A stretch of 64,000 nt of DNA from a virus (Duplodnaviria > Caudoviricetes): IMG/VR virus record IMGVR_UViG_3300046131_000022, positions 9,146 through 73,145 of that record; one strand, 5' to 3'. Positions 2,538-32,808 of the stretch are shown here, in pieces (the first letter of the stretch is position 1; the number at the start of each line of letters is the position of its first letter). The notes beneath the pieces are model-generated. The model saw only the letters and a program-made list of their open reading frames with translations. It was not told the DNA's origin and searched no databases. The translations under genes were made by a program, and so were the position numbers.

Positions 2538-3353
2538 ATGAAACTCCAAGTAATGGGAAATAAGAGTAAGAACATACTCTCTTTGCAAACCTACGACCCA
2601 CACAGCAACGAAATCGCTTATTTCGACTTAGGGTACGTCCCCAACAACAAAAGCCCTCTAACGAGCTTACAGACGCAAGAAATAAACGACGTATTCACCC
2701 AACTGGGTATTTCTGAAATCTACAAAGTGACTGAAACAACTTTGCAAGAATTTTCAGGAAACCGTCTAGTTCAAGAACTGATCTGTTTCGGTAGCAAGTC
2801 CAACAGCTTTGGCTTAATAATTTTCCGAAAACCGAGCACAAATGGCTTCGACCCCTTCGATTGGAGCGTTGAAAACTTAACAATCCAAAGTATCAAAGCA
2901 TCCCTTTACATGAATTGGATTCCTTCAGGATCACGTAATAAACCTGAAAAACCAACTTCTGAGTTTACCAACGTGAAAACGCAAGGGAAAAACAAAATTG
3001 TGACTTGTACTGTCTGTGGAAAACAAACTTGGGTAAGTCCGCAGCAAGCAACAAAAGCGAAGAAAAACCCAAATGGTTATCGTCATCCAGGTTGCGCCAA
3101 GTTCAAGGACAAGGACGACATGGAGAAACAGACTAAAATTCAATACATTAAACAATACCCCCACTCATGGAAAAGTCGAGATTATGAAGTCCACCCAGAA
3201 TGGTTGGAAGACACAAACAACTTCCTATTGTGGGTTGAGGAACAGGAAAAAGCCCAAGGCAAACCATTTGTCAAAGGCAGCACTCGTTTTAGACGTAAAA
3301 ATTTCAAAGAACCTTTCTGTCCTAAAAATTTACGAATGTGTTCTGAAATTTAA
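2538..3353 (+). CDS. Hypothetical protein with Zn finger and degenerate HNH-like C-terminal domain
   Basis: CTVCG...HPGC; C-terminus VHPEWLED..NFLLWV...RRKN...P.NLR resembles the phage VC.EW..F..W..IDRID..Y.P.NCRW family. Confidence 0.55.
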   Translation: MKLQVMGNKSKNILSLQTYDPHSNEIAYFDLGYVPNNKSPLTSLQTQEINDVFTQLGISEIYKVTETTLQEFSGNRLVQELICFGSKSNSFGLIIFRKPSTNGFDPFDWSVENLTIQSIKASLYMNWIPSGSRNKPEKPTSEFTNVKTQGKNKIVTCTVCGKQTWVSPQQATKAKKNPNGYRHPGCAKFKDKDDMEKQTKIQYIKQYPHSWKSRDYEVHPEWLEDTNNFLLWVEEQEKAQGKPFVKGSTRFRRKNFKEPFCPKNLRMCSEI

Positions 3354-4589: not shown

Positions 4590-4988
4590 ATGTTAACACC
4601 TAAAAAACTGCAAAATCAAATAGATAAACTATACAACGATGTTTATCTCAAAGAATTTGAAAACACAGCAAAAAATTACTTTGATGAAAAAATCAAACCT
4701 TATTGTGTAAAGAACAAACTATCTTTCTCAGTAATGAATGGAATACCACGCATGGTTAATCAGGAAAATCAATACGTTAGAATACCAAAAATAATAGAAA
4801 ACATATTAGATATTTCTGATCCAGAAGGCATTAGAATAATTTGGTATTTACCAAATTATAAATATTCAGAAAAAGCTGACTTTAATGAGGCAGATACTAA
4901 TTATTGGACAAATAGAGCCAAAGCAAGATTAAAAACCTGCGGTGGTGATGAACTTAAAGCAAGTTTGTCTTTAGCTTTTTCCATATAA
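4590..4988 (+). CDS. Hypothetical protein
   Basis: 132-aa ORF flanked by duplicated 29-bp leaders. Confidence 0.7.
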   Translation: MLTPKKLQNQIDKLYNDVYLKEFENTAKNYFDEKIKPYCVKNKLSFSVMNGIPRMVNQENQYVRIPKIIENILDISDPEGIRIIWYLPNYKYSEKADFNEADTNYWTNRAKARLKTCGGDELKASLSLAFSI

Positions 4989-8865: not shown

Positions 8866-9183
8866 ATGAACTCACTTAAATTAAGACAAAAGTACAAAAA
8901 ATTTAACCCTCAAGGGTATTTTTTTGAAGCTGAAACAATGCGCTTTTGGAAATCTAAAGTTGAACATATTCTCACTGAACGCCACGATGGATGTATTTTC
9001 TTCATGACAAGTGAAGACTCTTGGGCAAAAGAACCAGTAAGTAAATTTACGCTTCGTGTATTAATTCCTAAAGAAAATGGTGGAATCACTACATTAGCTG
9101 CACAAGCTTTTGAAAAAGAATTTCGTGAAGAAGCGATTGAAGCTTTGAAAGAATATAAGAAAACATTTGTTTTGGAGAAATAA
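8866..9183 (+). CDS. Conserved phage hypothetical protein
   Basis: GYFFEAETMRFWKS motif seen in phage early proteins; AAGGA RBS. Confidence 0.7.
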   Translation: MNSLKLRQKYKKFNPQGYFFEAETMRFWKSKVEHILTERHDGCIFFMTSEDSWAKEPVSKFTLRVLIPKENGGITTLAAQAFEKEFREEAIEALKEYKKTFVLEK

Positions 9184-9719: not shown

Positions 9720-10073
9720 ATGTTTTCTGAACCAGAATATGACCACCGAGGATGGATTACACCAGAATCGAGAACAAAGCTTACTGCTGAAGCTGACAAA
9801 ATTGATTTAACCAATAAGTGGGTTTTAATTATTGATGGAAGCTCTTACACTTATTTCCAAGTGGGTAAAGAAACAAACAAAAAAGTATTTTCTAAAGGTA
9901 GAAACATTCCAACGGAGCGTTTAAAAAAATACGTTTACATGGTGTTTGATACCGAAGAAGAATGTTCAAAACAATACAAATGGTTCCGTGAAAATAAAGA
10001 GCGACAACGAGCTTTACAGGAACAGTTTATAGCATACAGTAATCATTACAGAAACTATTTCCACTTTGGGTAA
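9720..10073 (+). CDS. Hypothetical protein
   Basis: 117-aa ORF, GAGGA RBS. Confidence 0.7.
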   Translation: MFSEPEYDHRGWITPESRTKLTAEADKIDLTNKWVLIIDGSSYTYFQVGKETNKKVFSKGRNIPTERLKKYVYMVFDTEEECSKQYKWFRENKERQRALQEQFIAYSNHYRNYFHFG

Positions 10074-26980: not shown

Positions 26981-27018
26981 TGCTAAGATAATCCTCAACA
27001 TTGTTGAGGATTATTTTT
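26981..27018 (+). promoter_or_regulatory. Extended -10 overlapping an RBS-occluding hairpin
   Basis: TGcTAAGAT 26981-89; 12-bp stem 26988-99/27003-14 holds GAGGA; TTTT then ATG. Confidence 0.6.
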
Positions 27019-27759
27019 ATGTCTAAAAAAACACGTATTGACTTCCAAAAATGGTTAATAGCTAAAGGTTGTTTTATAGGTAACTCTGGAGCAGACGGAA
27101 CCATTGGTAAAGAAACTAAACAAGCTACATACAATATTTTTTTTGAATTGAAAGCAAAAGCAATCACAAACCAAGAATTGGAAAAAATTGCACAAACCAT
27201 CGGTGACACAACAGGAACAGCTCGTATTCGTGCTGTTGCAGAAGTGGAGTCAAACGGTGGCGGTTGGTTAAATTCAGGACATGTAAAAATATTGTATGAA
27301 CGTCACAAGTTTTGGAAATACAATGATGATAGTTCAGCCCCAAAATCTACTTTCTTTAATTACCCAGAAGGGGGGAATTACACTATAGATGCCAACAACA
27401 ACGATATAAACGATTCATGGGAAAAGTTATTAAGAGCCTGTGAATATGATCCTATGGGTGCATTTATGTCCGTTTCTATGGGTAAATTTCAAGTAATGGG
27501 TTTCCATTATAAGGATATGGGTTTTGAAACACCTTGGGACATGATGTTTTCTCTAGTTTCTAATGAGTTTAATCACTACCAATTATTGGCTAAATTTATT
27601 CAAAATAACAATTTAAAAAATGCTTTCTTGAAAATAAATGCAGACTCAGAAAATTGTCGGGCTTTCGCTAAAGGTTATAATGGTAGCGGTTATACCAGAA
27701 ATCATTATCATATTAAAATCGCCTTGGCATTTTTAAAATTTAAAAAGGCAGGTTACTAA
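27019..27759 (+). CDS. Endolysin, N-acetylmuramidase (DUF3380-like) with N-terminal peptidoglycan-binding segment
   Basis: FQKWL..G....ADG.IG.ET; AVAEVES, ILYERHKF, SMGKFQVMGFHY, FAKGYNG; ATG 27019 has the GAGGA RBS. Confidence 0.88.
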   Translation: MSKKTRIDFQKWLIAKGCFIGNSGADGTIGKETKQATYNIFFELKAKAITNQELEKIAQTIGDTTGTARIRAVAEVESNGGGWLNSGHVKILYERHKFWKYNDDSSAPKSTFFNYPEGGNYTIDANNNDINDSWEKLLRACEYDPMGAFMSVSMGKFQVMGFHYKDMGFETPWDMMFSLVSNEFNHYQLLAKFIQNNNLKNAFLKINADSENCRAFAKGYNGSGYTRNHYHIKIALAFLKFKKAGY

Positions 27760-27807
27760 ATGAAAAGTATTTTTTACTTTGAACTGGAAGGTTGGGACGA
27801 TTAAATT

Positions 27808-27918
27808 ATGAACAAACGAGAGGTTTTAGTTGATGTAGCTAAGGCTTTGATTCAATTAAGTATTTATTTGATTGATAAGCGACAAAAACGCAAAGAGGAA
27901 AAAGAAAATGAAAAGTAG
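27808..27918 (+). CDS. 36-aa amphipathic/cationic peptide (not in ORF track)
   Basis: MNKREVLVDVAKALIQLSIYLIDKRQKRKEEKENEK directly after endolysin. Confidence 0.4.
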   Translation: MNKREVLVDVAKALIQLSIYLIDKRQKRKEEKENEK

Positions 27919-27920
27919 TG

Positions 27921-27949
27921 TTGACGAACGTTGGGACTTATAATAATCT
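27921..27949 (+). promoter_or_regulatory. Sigma70-type promoter of the ncRNA/tRNA operon
   Basis: TTGACG-17 bp-TAATCT. Confidence 0.7.
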
Positions 27950-27962
27950 TAGTCTCATGAAG

Positions 27963-28266
27963 TCGAACTACTGAGAAATCAGTAGTTCGATTTTCTTAGC
28001 CAAAGTTTAATTATCCCTCAGAAATTGAATTTTGGACTAAGAAAATCACCAATGAGTAGAAAAGCCCGAATCCCTATATGGTTAAGACTTTCTACAATAG
28101 TCTGTGGATACCAGCTTGGTAACAAGTAACGCCTGTTTGGGGACTGCATACAAACCAAATCAGCAAGTAAGTGAAAAGCTTACAAGTGATTTTCTTATAA
28201 CTTTGAAACACCTACTGACCGAGTAAAAGTAAAGTCAAATCTTTATTGTTGAATGGAGGTAGGTGT
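27963..28266 (+). ncRNA. Structured ncRNA module(s) A/B, family unknown
   Basis: 12-bp GAAA hairpin 27963-90; 12-bp helix 28038-49/28186-97 closing four internal hairpins incl. CTTG-GTAA-CAAG; 9-bp helix 28208-16/28258-66; no ORF. Confidence 0.55.
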
Positions 28267-28280
28267 GGATAAGAAAGTTT

Positions 28281-28438
28281 ATTTAGGGAAGCAAACAAAG
28301 TGGCGCAAACCACACAACATTGGTCATGAACAAGTTGTGCAGGGAGCAAAATGGCGGTAGCTAAATTGGTTAAAGCAGCCGAGCCATTCGGAAGATTATT
28401 GGTTCAAATCCAATCTGCACCGTTTGTTTCACCTAAGT
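28281..28438 (+). ncRNA. Structured RNA containing a tRNA-like domain
   Basis: 16-bp closing helix; inside, D arm, anticodon arm with 5-nt loop GCCAT, T arm ATTGG-TTCAAAT-CCAAT, 4-bp acceptor remnant. Confidence 0.6.
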
Positions 28439-28498
28439 AATTTGATTATTTAATAAATTAATTTAAAAATAATTAATTTAACTGATTCAAGTAGCTTA

Positions 28499-28826
28499 AA
28501 TAAACAATCAAAAGTTGTTTATTCAAAGTGAAGAATGACAATAACCTAATAAGTCGTTAAAAGGTAGTTGGTGACTTAATCACTGTCGCAGAACTGGACC
28601 CAAATAAAAGTCTGACTTTTATTTCTGTTGACAAGCTTTGAACCGAGCTTTGATTGCGTAATACAATCAGAAAGTTTCCTAATCAGTTACTAGGTTCAAA
28701 CATAAGCTTGTAATTTATTGGCAAAATAACTTGGGTAAGACCAAGGGGTACAAACGAGTTGCAACTCGCTTGGAGCAGAAAAATCTACAACCATGCCAAG
28801 GTTGGTAAATTACAAGACTTATGTTT
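28499..28826 (+). ncRNA. Structured ncRNA module E, family unknown
   Basis: 20-bp helix 28698-717/28806-26 (one bulge) closing a junction; further helices at 28499-523, 28602-24 and 28631-711. Confidence 0.55.
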
Positions 28827-28828
28827 AT

Positions 28829-28904
28829 TGCTTCATAGCTCAGTTGGTAGAGCAACGGACTGTTAATCCGTGGGTCACACGTTCGAACCGTGTTGAAGCA
28901 GCCA
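28829..28904 (+). tRNA. tRNA-Asn (GTT)
   Basis: Full cloverleaf TGCTTCA/TGAAGCA, loop CT-GTT-AA, TTCGAAC, encoded CCA. Confidence 0.95.
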
Positions 28905-29063
28905 TTTACTTAGAGAAGAAATCTGGAAAGTACGACGGTACGTTAAACAACATAAACTAGGACATGAGCGAGGTTCAAACCCTCAACATTTGGTTATGGC
29001 GTTCCGAAAACTGCAGATTGTTTGTGTTGAATATTTATTCTCAGATTTCTTCGTCTAAGTAAA
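28905..29063 (+). ncRNA. 159-nt rod-like ncRNA filling the Asn-CAT tRNA spacer
   Basis: 21-bp Watson-Crick terminal helix with one bulge; inner 10-bp helix; T-loop hairpin GAGG-TTCAAAC-CCTC. Confidence 0.65.
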
Positions 29064-29140
29064 TTTCCTATAGCTCAGTTGGTCAGAGCAGCGGACTCAT
29101 AATTCGTTGGTCACAGGTTCAAGTCCTGTTGGGGAAACCA
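29064..29140 (+). tRNA. tRNA-CAT (Ile2-like or elongator Met)
   Basis: Cloverleaf, loop CT-CAT-AA, CCA; C4:G69 and C5:G68 as in TilS substrates; lacks initiator GGG/CCC. Confidence 0.85.
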
Positions 29141-29147
29141 CTTAAAA

Positions 29148-29224
29148 GGCTCTGTAGCTCAGTTGGATAGAGCATCCGCCTTCTAAGCGGATGGTCACAG
29201 GTTCAAGTCCTGTCAGGGTCGCCA
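29148..29224 (+). tRNA. tRNA-Arg (TCT)
   Basis: Cloverleaf GGCTCTG/CAGGGTC, loop CT-TCT-AA, CCA. Confidence 0.95.
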
Positions 29225-29235
29225 TTTTTACTTTT

Positions 29236-29311
29236 GCTCGAATAGCTCAGTTGGTAGAGCAGTAACCCGATAAGTTATTGGTCACAGGTTCAAGTCCTGT
29301 AGGTAGTACCA
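29236..29311 (+). pseudogene. Degenerate tRNA-Ile (GAT)
   Basis: Intact D, anticodon and T arms and CCA, but acceptor pairs 4-7 mismatched (CGAA vs AGGT) and C at position 33. Confidence 0.7.
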
Positions 29312-29319
29312 AATTTTAG

Positions 29320-29346
29320 AAGTCCGTTAATTCGGGCTTATTTTTT
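29320..29346 (+). terminator. Terminator of the ncRNA/tRNA operon
   Basis: AAGTCCG-TTAATT-CGGGCTT then ATTTTTT. Confidence 0.65.
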
Positions 29347-29363
29347 AACTGAAGGAAACCAAA

Positions 29364-29840
29364 ATGAAAGAGAACTCTAATCTAACTGTAGTATTTTCAC
29401 CAGAAGCTATTGCCAATCAAATAGCCAACCACTTAATACAATTTGAGGAAAATATAAAAAAGTTTGGTGTTTCTAAAATATTGGAACCAACGAGAAAATT
29501 GTTTGAGCAAAGAACAGCACCCCTATTTGCTGAAACAGTAATTGAGAATATGGAAGAAAATATGTGGGACCCTGAAAGCCCAGATTCCGAACAAGTGAAA
29601 AAGTTACAAAACTCAGCCATTTTCTCAGCCCTGTCAAACAACAACTTAGTGTTAGCCGAGCACTTAGAAAAGAATGTTTGCTTCATTACTGTTCAACAAG
29701 AACTTAAAAAATATTTGGAACAATGTAATTTCAACAAACAAATTTATGGTGAATACTTAAATGAGTTGAAAAAAATCATTCAAGAAGTTAAACTGCGATT
29801 TAACTTAGTTCAAGATCAAGGCAATTTTTTCTTGAATTAA
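29364..29840 (+). CDS. Hypothetical helical protein
   Basis: 158 aa, AAGGA RBS. Confidence 0.7.
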   Translation: MKENSNLTVVFSPEAIANQIANHLIQFEENIKKFGVSKILEPTRKLFEQRTAPLFAETVIENMEENMWDPESPDSEQVKKLQNSAIFSALSNNNLVLAEHLEKNVCFITVQQELKKYLEQCNFNKQIYGEYLNELKKIIQEVKLRFNLVQDQGNFFLN

Positions 29841-30225: not shown

Positions 30226-32808
30226 ATGGGTTTTTCTTACACTAACCCGATACAAAACATTCTCGTTGACAGATCTAACATTGATGAATGGGATTCTTTT
30301 TTTGTTGAGCAGTTTAAAATCAATCAAAACTTCTGTGGTTATGATATTGAAACAAGCCAACGTGACGCTCATGAAGGGATTAAGAAACTCTTAAAAATTG
30401 ACAACGACGGTTTCAGCCATGGTAAAAAATTAATTTTCGATTTTAAAAGAAGCAAAATCACAGGGGCTTCTTTTTACTTTGGGCATCAAGCAGGTGACAA
30501 AGCTTTTTATGTTAACTTCGGACATGCCGATGAGGAAAACACCATCAGCACATCCTACCTTTGGAAATGGATGGATTTAGCGAAACAGAATAATGTGAAT
30601 TTAATTATTCACAATAGACAGTACGAGCATTCGGTTCATTTAGGCTCTTATGGTTACACGCTGCCAAACGCTTTTTGCTCAATGCAATTGGCTGTTACAG
30701 CATATAACCCAGATGAGTATAAAAAATCACACTTAATTAATGCTGTACTGCAAGGTGTTCGACCACTTATTCCAGAAATTGAACGATTATTTACCAACGT
30801 TGAAAAAGGTTCTTTAACCTTTAAACAAGACGAACTATTAGGTAAATTTTGTGCAAAGTCTGGGACAGCGACTCATTCTTATGAAGGTATTGTTAAATCA
30901 ATCTCTTATGGTTACGGTTTGAAAAAAGCAACCAAATCTTGGTTTGGTCATCAAATGCTTGAGTTCAAAGACACATTAGGTGATGAACCAGATATGGAAG
31001 CCCTTACAGGGGCACAAGTTCTTGCCTACGGTGCTGACGATGCTGTTTGGGCTTACAGATTGTTTTTTAGATTATACAGCCACCTTCAATCAGTGAACCC
31101 AAAAGCACTACAAACCTACTTAGCTGTTGAAAACCCAATCACAAAGATCTTTTCTGAAACAACTGTAGGTGGGATGAAGGTAAATAAACCCGAAATCCTG
31201 AAGCGACAAACAACCATGCGAGGAACCGTCGCTGAGAACTTGATTGAATTTAAAAAAGAGCTGCGTAAGATTTTTCCGTCTGAACTGCCACCGATGCACG
31301 AAAAACTGTTGAAATACGAAAAATGGTATAAAGAAGCATCCCATTTGAAATATTTTAACCAAGTAAAAAATTGGTTAGAAACACCCGATGATTTGAGTGA
31401 GTATCAAACATGTATTCAAGTGAAAAACTCAACAGGTAATGCATGGTATCAGGAAAATACAGGGTCAACCAAACATCCACCAATGGCTCAATTATCCATA
31501 AACCATTACATGGCTATGCGATTCATTTTATTTGTGATTTGCGATTTACCATGTAAAGCTAACGGAGGGAAGATCCAGTCGGATAAAGATGCCAGAGCTG
31601 AAATGCTTTCTGAAATCCCCGAAGATCATAAAGGTCGAAGAATTGTGGAGCTATATGCCAAATTAGGTTCTGCAGAACAAGCCTTTAAACTATATATTAC
31701 ACCTTATTTATTTTTGGTTGACCCCGAATCTGGTTTGATGCACCCAATCATGACAAGTATGTTGGCAACCCGAAGAACAAGTTGTTCCAACCCCAACGGA
31801 CAACAACTTGCCAAACGTGGTGAATCTGTCTTCGTCCGTGGCTTTTTCCAAGCCGATGACCCCGACAGTTTAATTGTCTCAGCCGATTGGTCTGCTATTG
31901 AACTTGTAGCGATTGCTGCAAACAGTCAAGATCCAGAGTTTTTGGAAGCTTATAAACAACGACCACATGCTGATTTACATAGTAAGGCTGCAGCAGGTGT
32001 TATGGGTTTATCAGTGGAAGATTTCTCCCAACTGGAAGATAAGAAAACACACCGTACCGTTCTAGGTAAAGGTGCTAACTTTGAATACTGGTACTCAGGT
32101 TGGTTAATGAACACAGCTAAACGAATGGGTTGGTCAATGGAACAAACTGCAGAAGCGGTAAAAGGCTACGCCAACACATTTAAAGTTGCTGAACAGTGGC
32201 GACAAAATGTTATTAATGAGATTCAACAACGAGGGGTTATTCAACTCCCAGATGGTTTGACTCGTGTTCGTTTTGAAGCGACAGAAGAATGGTCTGAAAT
32301 GATGTGGGAAGCTTTTTCAAGCTTTGGCTCAGATGCAGTGTTGAATTTTGCAAGAGAAGCTATGCGGAGGATTCAGCGAAGATCCTTCAACCAAGCGGTG
32401 AATTTCGCCATTCAGGGTCTTTGTGCAGGTTTGGCAAAGAGAACTATTTTGAGAACGGTAGAAGAATCTAAAAAAGCTGAATTTAAAGCTCGTTTTATGT
32501 TGCTTATTCACGACGAGTTATTATTCTCTGTACCTAGAAAGGAAGTCGCTGCTTTCTGTGATTTCTTATATGAGCAAATGATTCAAGATACTGATTTATT
32601 ACCAGGTGTGGCTATTGATAGTTCTGTTGCTATCGGCTATACCTTCCAACCTTTTGATAAAGACTCAGCCCCTTATGGTCAAATTGAGTTGATGGAAATC
32701 CAAAAAGGGGTTCCTTGTGTACCTAAAGAAGCTTGGGAGACTAAGGCTACACCAGTATTGCGAGATAATATTATCAATTATCTAACAATTTGTAGAATGG
32801 CTGCTTAA
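30226..32808 (+). CDS. polA: DNA polymerase, family A, with 3'-5' exonuclease
   Basis: ExoI YDIET, ExoIII YGADD, motif A ADWSAIEL, motif B R...GKGANF..Y, motif C IHDEL; GAGGA RBS. Confidence 0.93.
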   Translation: MGFSYTNPIQNILVDRSNIDEWDSFFVEQFKINQNFCGYDIETSQRDAHEGIKKLLKIDNDGFSHGKKLIFDFKRSKITGASFYFGHQAGDKAFYVNFGHADEENTISTSYLWKWMDLAKQNNVNLIIHNRQYEHSVHLGSYGYTLPNAFCSMQLAVTAYNPDEYKKSHLINAVLQGVRPLIPEIERLFTNVEKGSLTFKQDELLGKFCAKSGTATHSYEGIVKSISYGYGLKKATKSWFGHQMLEFKDTLGDEPDMEALTGAQVLAYGADDAVWAYRLFFRLYSHLQSVNPKALQTYLAVENPITKIFSETTVGGMKVNKPEILKRQTTMRGTVAENLIEFKKELRKIFPSELPPMHEKLLKYEKWYKEASHLKYFNQVKNWLETPDDLSEYQTCIQVKNSTGNAWYQENTGSTKHPPMAQLSINHYMAMRFILFVICDLPCKANGGKIQSDKDARAEMLSEIPEDHKGRRIVELYAKLGSAEQAFKLYITPYLFLVDPESGLMHPIMTSMLATRRTSCSNPNGQQLAKRGESVFVRGFFQADDPDSLIVSADWSAIELVAIAANSQDPEFLEAYKQRPHADLHSKAAAGVMGLSVEDFSQLEDKKTHRTVLGKGANFEYWYSGWLMNTAKRMGWSMEQTAEAVKGYANTFKVAEQWRQNVINEIQQRGVIQLPDGLTRVRFEATEEWSEMMWEAFSSFGSDAVLNFAREAMRRIQRRSFNQAVNFAIQGLCAGLAKRTILRTVEESKKAEFKARFMLLIHDELLFSVPRKEVAAFCDFLYEQMIQDTDLLPGVAIDSSVAIGYTFQPFDKDSAPYGQIELMEIQKGVPCVPKEAWETKATPVLRDNIINYLTICRMAA

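Follow-up and report, generated by a model that had tools for sequence, protein, structure and literature searches.

Stable RNAs have been known in phage tRNA operons since bacteriophage T4, the tRNA operon of which releases the species 1 and 2 RNAs (rnaC and rnaD), both stable and ~120-140 nt in length. Larger phage-associated RNAs, of 500-800 nt, make up the families GOLLD and ROOL, and GOLLD RNAs can embed tRNAs. Two further kinds of RNA invite comparison: the tRNA mimics YrlA, skipping-rope, DUF2693-FD and salivarius-1, the mark of which is, according to a 2026 preprint, an acceptor-like helix joined directly to a T-arm, and the phage arrays associated with UG27 reverse transcriptases, which are made of variable structured units of ~150 nt with a basal hairpin (bioRxiv 10.64898/2026.09.22.753630). 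Here we set these systems beside a 1.4-kb tract between positions 27919 and 29363 of a 64,000-nt stretch of phage DNA (“the window”; IMG/VR record IMGVR_UViG_3300046131_000022, positions 9,146 to 73,145), which makes up most of that 73-kb virus record. The tract lies between the lysis block and the replication block of the phage and was found to be an array of independent modules that are gained, lost and reordered among relatives. Four of these, named M1, M3b, M4 and M5 (Table 1), are structured RNAs that keep their helices through compensatory changes, and M1 belongs to an RNA family specific to phages, which is found in unrelated virulent phages and is absent from Rfam. The locus falls under an already known kind, the stable RNAs of phage tRNA operons; new are the member of a broad RNA family outside Rfam and the finding that such RNAs come as exchangeable modules.

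In order to examine the conservation of the tract, 16 further loci were obtained via homologues of the family A DNA polymerase (PolA) of the window. Labels between L006 and L039 denote compared loci, among which L016 is phage EAb13, L018 is TCUP2199, L039 is CBA120 and L030 is a jumbo phage. Module M1 carries an invariant 27-nt core (28063-28089) inside its helix P2 and is 97% identical to the copies found in L006 and L012, as against ~72% DNA identity for the coding flanks of the window and L006. In an alignment of six M1 sequences from two clades, all 30 pairs are formed in every sequence and 14 are changed on both sides, with a covariation score of 0.56 compared with 0.24 when shuffled and at most 0.12 with slid partners. 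Sixteen sequences, distant phages included, gave compensatory changes in 27 of the 30 pairs, 96.6% pairing and a score of 0.44 (0.13 shuffled; at most 0.08 for slid controls), although this larger alignment was fitted to the model and favours the modelled pairs.

The spread of the family was established by several searches. A pattern consisting of the 27-nt core with three free positions was found in 11 IMG/VR contigs of 13-358 kb and in a single contig among 185,579 prokaryote species (one genome each); this lone contig from the cellular database encodes a weak, sub-threshold match to a T4-baseplate-like protein. BLAST of the core region returned 104 GenBank phage records, chiefly of Kuttervirus (CBA120, Marshall, SKML-39, Ag3 and others), together with N4-like Gamaleyavirus, Vibrio and Aeromonas phages and five Acinetobacter phages. 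The M1 model, R1, identified members in 13 further loci, the window copy scoring 185.7 bits; full-length distant members, at 38-59 bits, were found in a 193-kb phage, a 358-kb jumbo phage, two small contigs, a metagenome-assembled genome contig and the N4-like phage HK2. These full-length members have in common the core within a covarying helix, the conserved strand that follows it and a 3' hairpin whose loop is conserved, all within the closing helix. The helix around the core is of a different sequence in each phage group. The family is common to Acinetobacter siphophages, Kuttervirus, N4-like and jumbo phages. The settings of its members are diverse: the jumbo-phage member lies inside a cluster of 13 tRNAs and a transfer-messenger RNA (tmRNA), that of HK2 stands ~130 nt upstream of a tRNA, that of CBA120 falls within 2.2 kb that carry no annotation and closely precedes an HNH endonuclease gene, tRNA-Met and tRNA-Asn, and in L029 M1 is a stand-alone gene with its own terminator. 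A 26-nt string of M1 was found within IMG/VR in the contig of L006 only.

The Kuttervirus (Vi1-like, Ackermannviridae) RNAs are alike in having the same 27-nt core in a helix and in lying in a large tract free of open reading frames (ORFs) upstream of tRNA-Met and tRNA-Asn. They differ in that only the core and its enclosing helix align to R1 (model positions 26-54, 26-28 bits), and they are larger than M1, carrying about 170 nt of other helices.

The family is not covered by Rfam. A cmscan of positions 27600-29500 against all 4227 families of Rfam 15, with permissive filters and E ≤ 10, yielded tRNA hits and chance hits only. The same was true of the M1 members of the window, L038 and L030 (all families, E ≤ 10) and of the CBA120 and HK2 loci (all families, E ≤ 0.1), and our literature search found no paper describing the family. 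Neither ARAGORN nor Rfam called a tmRNA in the window. A preliminary description of this DNA, which had called for such a scan for GOLLD, ROOL, YrlA and tmRNA, had assigned the RNAs to no known family; this holds for Rfam, in which no family other than tRNA was matched, but M1 is not unique to this phage and belongs to a widespread phage RNA family.

The remaining three modules are narrower in distribution. M3b is the most widely kept module within the lineage of the window phage, its model (R2) recovering nine loci at 114-168 bits. Eight sequences aligned with MAFFT showed compensatory changes in 14 of 22 pairs and a covariation score of 0.60 against 0.23 when shuffled, a value reached in 0 of 500 shuffles. 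For M4, comparison with the L006 copy gave 37 pairs with seven compensatory changes distributed across four helices, and an exact 32-nt string of the module was found within IMG/VR in the contig of L006 only. For M5, comparison with L025 gave 40 pairs of which nine were compensatory, mostly in the 23-bp rod, with inner strands nearly unchanged; its inner T-arm-like hairpin, with a 4-bp stem and a 7-nt T-loop-like loop, is conserved in L025. The M5 model (R3) found the window and L025 copies plus a weak hit, and a pattern of the M5 core gave no hit in IMG/VR. Compensatory changes, the absence of which in homologues was, together with a lack of any accumulating stable RNA, to have counted against structured RNAs in the preliminary description, were found in all four modules.

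Comparison between loci shows that the modules behave independently of each other. When the window is set against L006, three non-coding blocks stand out, namely the leader hairpins, M1 and M4 (28698-28828), while the middle 500 nt are unrelated to L006 apart from ~70 nt of M3b. M1 is found in L006, L012, EAb13, Mystique and TCUP2199, with diverged copies in L019, L024 and L026; M3b is present in nine loci and absent from the EAb13 group; and, among the compared loci, M4 is shared with L006 only and M5 with L025 only. Order varies as well. M1 lies upstream of tRNA-Asn in the window, L006 and L012 and ~1 kb downstream of it in EAb13-type phages, and M5 follows tRNA-Asn in the window but precedes it in L025 (order M3b, M5, tRNA-Asn). 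Loci L013 and L012 encode the same PolA protein, yet L013 is without the M1 core and keeps the closing stem, capped by a 5-nt loop. At the place occupied by M1 in L012, L013 (~1945-2030) carries a gene resembling a tRNA, in which the D and T arms are good but the anticodon loop is of 9 nt; ARAGORN did not call it.

The relation of the tract to T4 rnaC and rnaD is one of kind and not of homology. Both loci have RNAs inside a phage tRNA operon: rnaC and rnaD are annotated next to tRNA-Arg in the T4 record, and here M4 and M5 adjoin tRNA-Asn and tRNA-Met. Moreover, T4 rnaC ends in a T-arm-like hairpin and M5 contains one. T4 has two such RNAs, whereas the window has at least four modules with long closing helices, one of them in a family that extends beyond one phage group. 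With filters off, R1 reached at most 9.7 bits in the T4 region, with nothing at rnaC or rnaD, and R2 and R3 gave no hit in the T4 locus. M5 may also be likened in general layout to YrlA-type Y RNAs, given its long end-to-end stem and the inner hairpin with a 7-nt T-loop-like loop; its T-stem is of 4 bp, and no adjoining 7-bp acceptor-like helix is evident. The YrlA model (RF02553) gave 26.8 and 20.6 bits against a threshold of 69, in hits spanning junctions of real tRNAs and not M1 or M5, and no match to Ro/TROVE or RtcB was found in the 73-kb record, which covers the phage only.

Table 1 Features of the tract and of the neighbouring genes (positions in the window)
Feature	Position	Strand	Description
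Muramidase-type endolysin	27001-27759		Lysis block
36-aa ORF	stop at 27918		Lysis block
Promoter-like site	27921-27951	+	-35 at 27921-27926; candidate -10 hexamers in A/T block 27939-27949
HP1	27963-27997	+	12-bp hairpin (27963-27990), GAAA loop, then T-rich run
HP2	27989-28047	+	Hairpin of ~24 bp
M1	28037-28197	+	161-nt RNA; 12-bp closing helix, helix P2, GUAA hairpin, 3' hairpin
M2	28198-28352	+	Folded spacer; z-score -2.9
tL1	28353-28422	+	Defective tRNA look-alike; Rfam tRNA 36.2 bits, not called by ARAGORN
M3a	28423-28523	+	A/T-rich hairpin spacer, not conserved
M3b	28524-28700	+	177-nt structured RNA with five helices
M4	28698-28828	+	131-nt RNA; 20-bp closing helix, three inner hairpins; z-score -5.1
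tRNA-Asn (GUU)	28829-28904	+	ARAGORN; Rfam 69.5 bits
M5	28905-29063	+	159-nt rod RNA; closing helix ~21-23 bp; z-score -4.8
tRNA with CAU anticodon (Met, or Ile2 after modification)	29064-29140	+	ARAGORN; Rfam 65.6 bits
tRNA-Arg (UCU)	29148-29224	+	ARAGORN; Rfam 69.8 bits
tL2	29236-29312	+	Defective tRNA look-alike; Rfam 45.3 bits at 29243-29300, model positions 8-63 only; not called by ARAGORN
Intrinsic terminator	29320-29346	+	Scan: 29320-29339, 7-bp stem with 4 G-C pairs, then T run
158-aa ORF	from 29364		Replication block, first gene after the tract
PolA	30226-32808		Replication block

The anatomy of the tract was then compared with the preliminary description. The longest ORF is one of 55 aa that overlaps tRNA-Asn, so that the reported lack of any ORF of 60 aa or more over 1.4 kb was borne out. 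The consensus promoter reported at 27921-49 could be retained in part. TTGACG (27921-27926) and TATAAT (27939-27944) are separated by a spacer of 12 nt, weaker -10-like hexamers occur at spacers of 15 and 17 nt, and a promoter scan restricted to spacers of 16-18 nt did not call the site. Since five relatives (including L006, L013, L007 and L019) have an unchanged -35 hexamer and retain the A/T-rich -10 block while the spacer diverges, we accept a putative promoter at 27921, with an uncertain -10. The terminator at 29320 was called by the terminator scan, as had been described, and is the sole plus-strand terminator called in the tract.

The Asn, CAU and Arg tRNAs (65-70 bits) each form a complete cloverleaf, in which the acceptor stem is of 7 bp and the anticodon loop of 7 nt. 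The tRNA-Asn gene is kept in 10 of 14 related gaps and is the one tRNA kept in most relatives. Two look-alikes deviate from this pattern: in tL1 the D and T arms are present, but the anticodon loop is of 5 nt and the acceptor stem of ~4 bp, and a helix of ~18 bp, interrupted by a single bulge, surrounds the element (28279-28296 with 28422-28439); tL2 has intact D, anticodon and T arms and a CCA end, but its 3' acceptor strand is unpaired and its position 33 is C. The 5' half of tL2 resembles the tRNA-Thr of L007. Sound tRNA accounts for about 230 nt, and for about 375 nt when tL1 and tL2 are counted; the preliminary description had given about 300 nt.

Every piece of the tract folds better than its dinucleotide shuffles (z-scores of -2.5, -5.1, -4.8, -2.9, -3.7 and -9.2 for successive pieces). 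Long-range helices are present as had been reported, with 12 bp in M1, ~20 bp in M4, ~21-23 bp in M5 and ~18 bp around tL1, and the modules do adjoin tRNA ends, M4 ending 2 nt before tRNA-Asn and M5 exactly filling the space between tRNA-Asn and tRNA-Met. The two leader hairpins, HP1 and HP2, account together for the z-score of -9.2. HP1, which shows one compensatory pair with respect to L006 and L013 and has an equivalent with a longer T run in L019, may be a hairpin that stabilises the 5' end or else the lysis-gene terminator. HP2 has counterparts with a changed inner sequence in L006, L012 and L013. The 5' strand of the M1 closing helix is formed by the 3' strand of HP2, and the two pairings are therefore mutually exclusive. 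A 10-nt direct repeat (27989-27998 and 28188-28197) flanks HP2 and M1, and an intervening complement can pair with either copy. This three-part arrangement is kept in L006, L012 and L013, in the last of these even without the M1 core; it may be a folding switch, a processing device or the trace of a module insertion. As for the spacers, M2 has no BLAST match in any related locus, and M3a none in relatives beyond its 3' edge. M2 holds a candidate Lys/Arg-rich ORF of 31 codons, from a GTG at 28265 to a stop at 28360 inside tL1, with a GGAGG ribosome-binding site ~5 nt upstream; no relative of this ORF was found.

Overall, we propose with a probability of about 0.6 that the tract is a tRNA operon, transcribed by the host polymerase, whose spacers are stable RNAs, and that its modules are exchangeable accessory cargo. 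From the observed gene anatomy, modularity, structural conservation and family distribution we infer the following course for transcription, processing and function. The host-type promoter would start transcription and the terminator at 29320 would end it, giving a single RNA-only unit with three functional tRNAs, two defective copies of tRNAs and no fewer than four independent RNA genes (M1, M3b, M4 and M5). RNase P would cut the 5' ends of the tRNAs, the 3' ends would be trimmed, and RNase III would probably cut the closing helices of 20-23 bp; this route is suggested by established tRNA-operon biology and by the T4 precedent. Because the ends of the modules pair and adjoin a tRNA or another module, such cleavage would release each module as a compact RNA whose paired ends resist exonucleases. 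The modules themselves would be swapped between phages as accessory cargo. In anatomical terms this agrees with one of the two possibilities considered in the preliminary description, that of several tRNA-linked structured RNAs, for which a role as decoys or scaffolds had been suggested; the four modules with compensatory changes are the instances.

The conservation of M1, with an invariant core and freely varying helices, is riboswitch-like or ribozyme-like. Together with a broad spread among phages, of Proteobacteria and of a likely Bacteroidota host, and an almost complete absence from cells, it suggests a specific partner that is conserved across bacteria. As M1 is often near tRNA clusters and the neighbouring modules hold tRNA-like pieces, we tentatively prefer a tRNA-linked target, that is, a factor or enzyme that M1 might bind, mimic or block, although we consider it less likely than not; a small-molecule aptamer or a ribozyme is also possible. 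It is a rather speculative suggestion that M1 represents a new functional RNA class, the invariant core of which binds one universally conserved target, with M3b, M4 and M5 as cargo of narrower range. In that case M1 might imitate the tRNA elbow and so capture a tRNA-binding enzyme or a defensive anticodon nuclease of the host, or it might be an aptamer that sequesters a small signalling molecule. If this were true, virulent phages of many host phyla would carry M1 and deliver it in bulk from tRNA operons. Several carriers have been cultured, among them CBA120 and therapy candidates such as EAb13 and Mystique, so that the role of M1-type RNAs is directly testable, and the family could join the RNA databases.

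Several observations weigh against our proposal of an operon of stable RNAs. At the promoter, a spacing of 12 nt between the perfect hexamers leaves the true -10 in doubt, and HP1 with its T run follows only a few bases past the likely start site, where it could terminate transcripts early. HP2 competes with the closing helix of M1, which may consequently fold otherwise in the full precursor. M4 and M5 are each supported by two sequences only, and the sixteen-sequence alignment of M1 shares the bias noted above. The 31-codon ORF with its good ribosome-binding site lies in M2, and M2 and M3a, being without relatives, may be filler. Lastly, the M1 members of L029, L031 and L038 have no tRNA in the fetched locus or within several kb, and linkage of M1 to tRNA processing is therefore not universal; the neighbouring genes of these three members gave no informative Pfam match.

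According to another explanation, the tract is mainly cis-acting and serves as a leader, or as a processing or termination buffer, that separates the replication genes from the late lysis operon. RNase III sites, terminators or an attenuator would then be provided by the hairpins, with the choice between HP2 and the M1 closing helix setting the read-through to the genes downstream. HP1 and its T run are terminator-like and placed just past the promoter, HP2 and the M1 closing helix exclude each other, and the three-part repeat is retained in L013 in spite of the missing M1 core. We nevertheless consider this explanation unlikely, as the tract ends in a strong terminator ahead of the next gene, M1 is found elsewhere in quite different contexts, including the stand-alone gene of L029, and a processing site would not need an invariant 27-nt core.

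Alternatively, the parts that are not tRNA could be functionless: a hypervariable tRNA region would here have accumulated tRNA genes in decay and the debris of recombination, and the structure would be left over from tRNA ancestry. The two clearly crippled tRNAs, the T-arm-like hairpin of M5, the orphan spacers M2 and M3a and the HNH homing endonuclease genes in the same region of L012, L013 and CBA120 would all be expected of such a region. It is difficult, however, to reconcile debris with pairing that is kept through 14-27 compensatory changes, with 97% identity maintained while the flanks drift to 72%, or with a 27-nt core that is invariant across phages of different host phyla, and we regard this origin as likewise unlikely.

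The other possibility considered in the preliminary description was a single GOLLD-like RNA of ~870 nt (27960-28828), that is, one large ornate RNA of the GOLLD/ROOL type folding as a unit with tRNA-like parts embedded. The tract shares with GOLLD and ROOL the association with phages, the lack of protein, the high degree of structure and the occasional position next to or around tRNAs, and its continuous ORF-free structure, GNRA loops and long-range helices, along with the embedding of tRNAs by GOLLD, are in line with such an RNA. Neither GOLLD (RF01998) nor ROOL (RF03087), nor any other large-RNA model, gave a hit at E ≤ 10 in 27600-29500. Furthermore, those families are contiguous RNAs conserved as a unit, whereas the window has separable units of 130-180 nt: L007 has M3b without M1 or M4, L013 lacks the M1 core, EAb13 has M1 without M3b, the part at 28198-28523 is without any relative, and every strong helix is local to one 130-180-nt module. 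Because the modules are distributed and ordered independently and no large-RNA model is matched, we abandon the single RNA, which is now very improbable, in favour of an array.

Hardly more credible is the view of the modules as small mobile DNA elements, similar to miniature inverted-repeat transposable elements, whose terminal inverted repeats would mimic closing helices. The dimensions would fit (130-160 nt, ending in inverted repeats of 12-23 bp), as would the presence/absence polymorphism between near-identical phages and the 10-nt direct repeat that flanks HP2-M1 at 27989 and 28188. Each module is single-copy in the window, however, and the arms change by compensatory pairs instead of staying constant; the inner hairpins covary too, for which transposase-bound ends have no need; and L013, in keeping the stem and losing the core, shows the opposite of an excision footprint. 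An array of templates for a reverse transcriptase, as in the UG27-associated phage arrays, is close to refuted in spite of the similar form (~150-nt units with a basal hairpin, gained and lost between close relatives), as those arrays adjoin a reverse transcriptase, whereas no reverse transcriptase domain (RVT_1) was matched in the 73-kb record, from which ~11% of the genome is missing, and the units here are heterogeneous and not repeats of one fold.

A number of candidate relationships of the modules were examined and rejected. No support was obtained for a pseudoknot in which the conserved strand after P2 would pair with the 3' end of the M1 core, these segments being invariant in most members and the pairing broken in the two divergent ones, L019 and L024. 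Local alignment of five M1 members to the tmRNA of L030 was no better than with shuffles, and M1 is not considered tmRNA-like. Inspection by eye showed a few strings of 7-11 nt in common between M1 and RNase P RNA or the R/S elements of group I introns; these were deemed chance, since the RNase P strings are not in the same order and no Rfam RNase P or intron model gave a hit. The descent of M3b from tRNA-Leu(UAA) was entertained on account of a gapped pattern that matched this tRNA in three related phages, but the match is out of register and lies partly in the tRNA 5' leader, and about a dozen chance hits were expected. Apart from these rejected candidates, the M1 member of the jumbo phage L030 carries an insertion (9744-9801, minus strand) with box C/D-like strings, to which archaeal sRNA models gave a weak match (17 bits) that hints at a kink-turn; the 13 tRNAs and the tmRNA of this phage lie in the same 15-kb stretch.

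With regard to the phage itself, its PolA is 82-83% identical to those of two uncultured IMG/VR phages (L006 and L007), and a search of metagenomes with an alignment of PolA led to no contigs other than these two. Its identity to the PolA of five Acinetobacter baumannii siphophages is 68%, namely EAb13, Mystique, TCUP2199, fJoAci01 and fJoAci04. The layout of endolysin, RNA gap and PolA is common to the window phage, the two IMG/VR phages and the five A. baumannii phages. On the basis of these identities the phage can be classed, from its sequence, as an EAb13-like virulent siphophage, which probably infects Acinetobacter or a closely related host. In nearly all of the 16 loci the endolysin is followed by 450-1600 nt that are poor in ORFs and usually include tRNA-Asn.

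Other genes at these loci vary between relatives. The product of the ORF just 3' of the RNA operon (29364-29840) has 24-29% protein identity to its counterparts in L006 and L007, in spite of the 82-83% of PolA, and is encoded by a fast-evolving early gene that adjoins an RNA conserved at 97%. HNH homing endonuclease genes are found in or beside the RNA-tRNA tracts of L012 (1210-1590), L013 (3000-3458) and CBA120 (2716-3129), which fits a recombination hot spot. Two relatives, L020 (1584-2771) and L021 (1429-2616), have an insertion of an IS605 OrfB/TnpB (Cas12f-like) gene upstream of their lysis genes.

The region goes unmentioned in the publications on EAb13, Mystique and TCUP2199, and in the annotations of cultured carriers it is blank or covered by tiny doubtful ORFs. 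In the GenBank record of EAb13, tRNA-Asn stands alone and the 1.3-kb tract is filled by seven tiny ORFs with near-zero gene-caller scores; inside this ORF-poor tract ARAGORN called an 80-nt tRNA (~3744-3823 of L016) with a CUA anticodon, labelled Pyl and amber-suppressor-like. The genome of TCUP2199 was reported to be tRNA-free and has 1.6 kb without an annotated gene (3486-5105 of L018), within which a full copy of M1 is found at 4781-4946.

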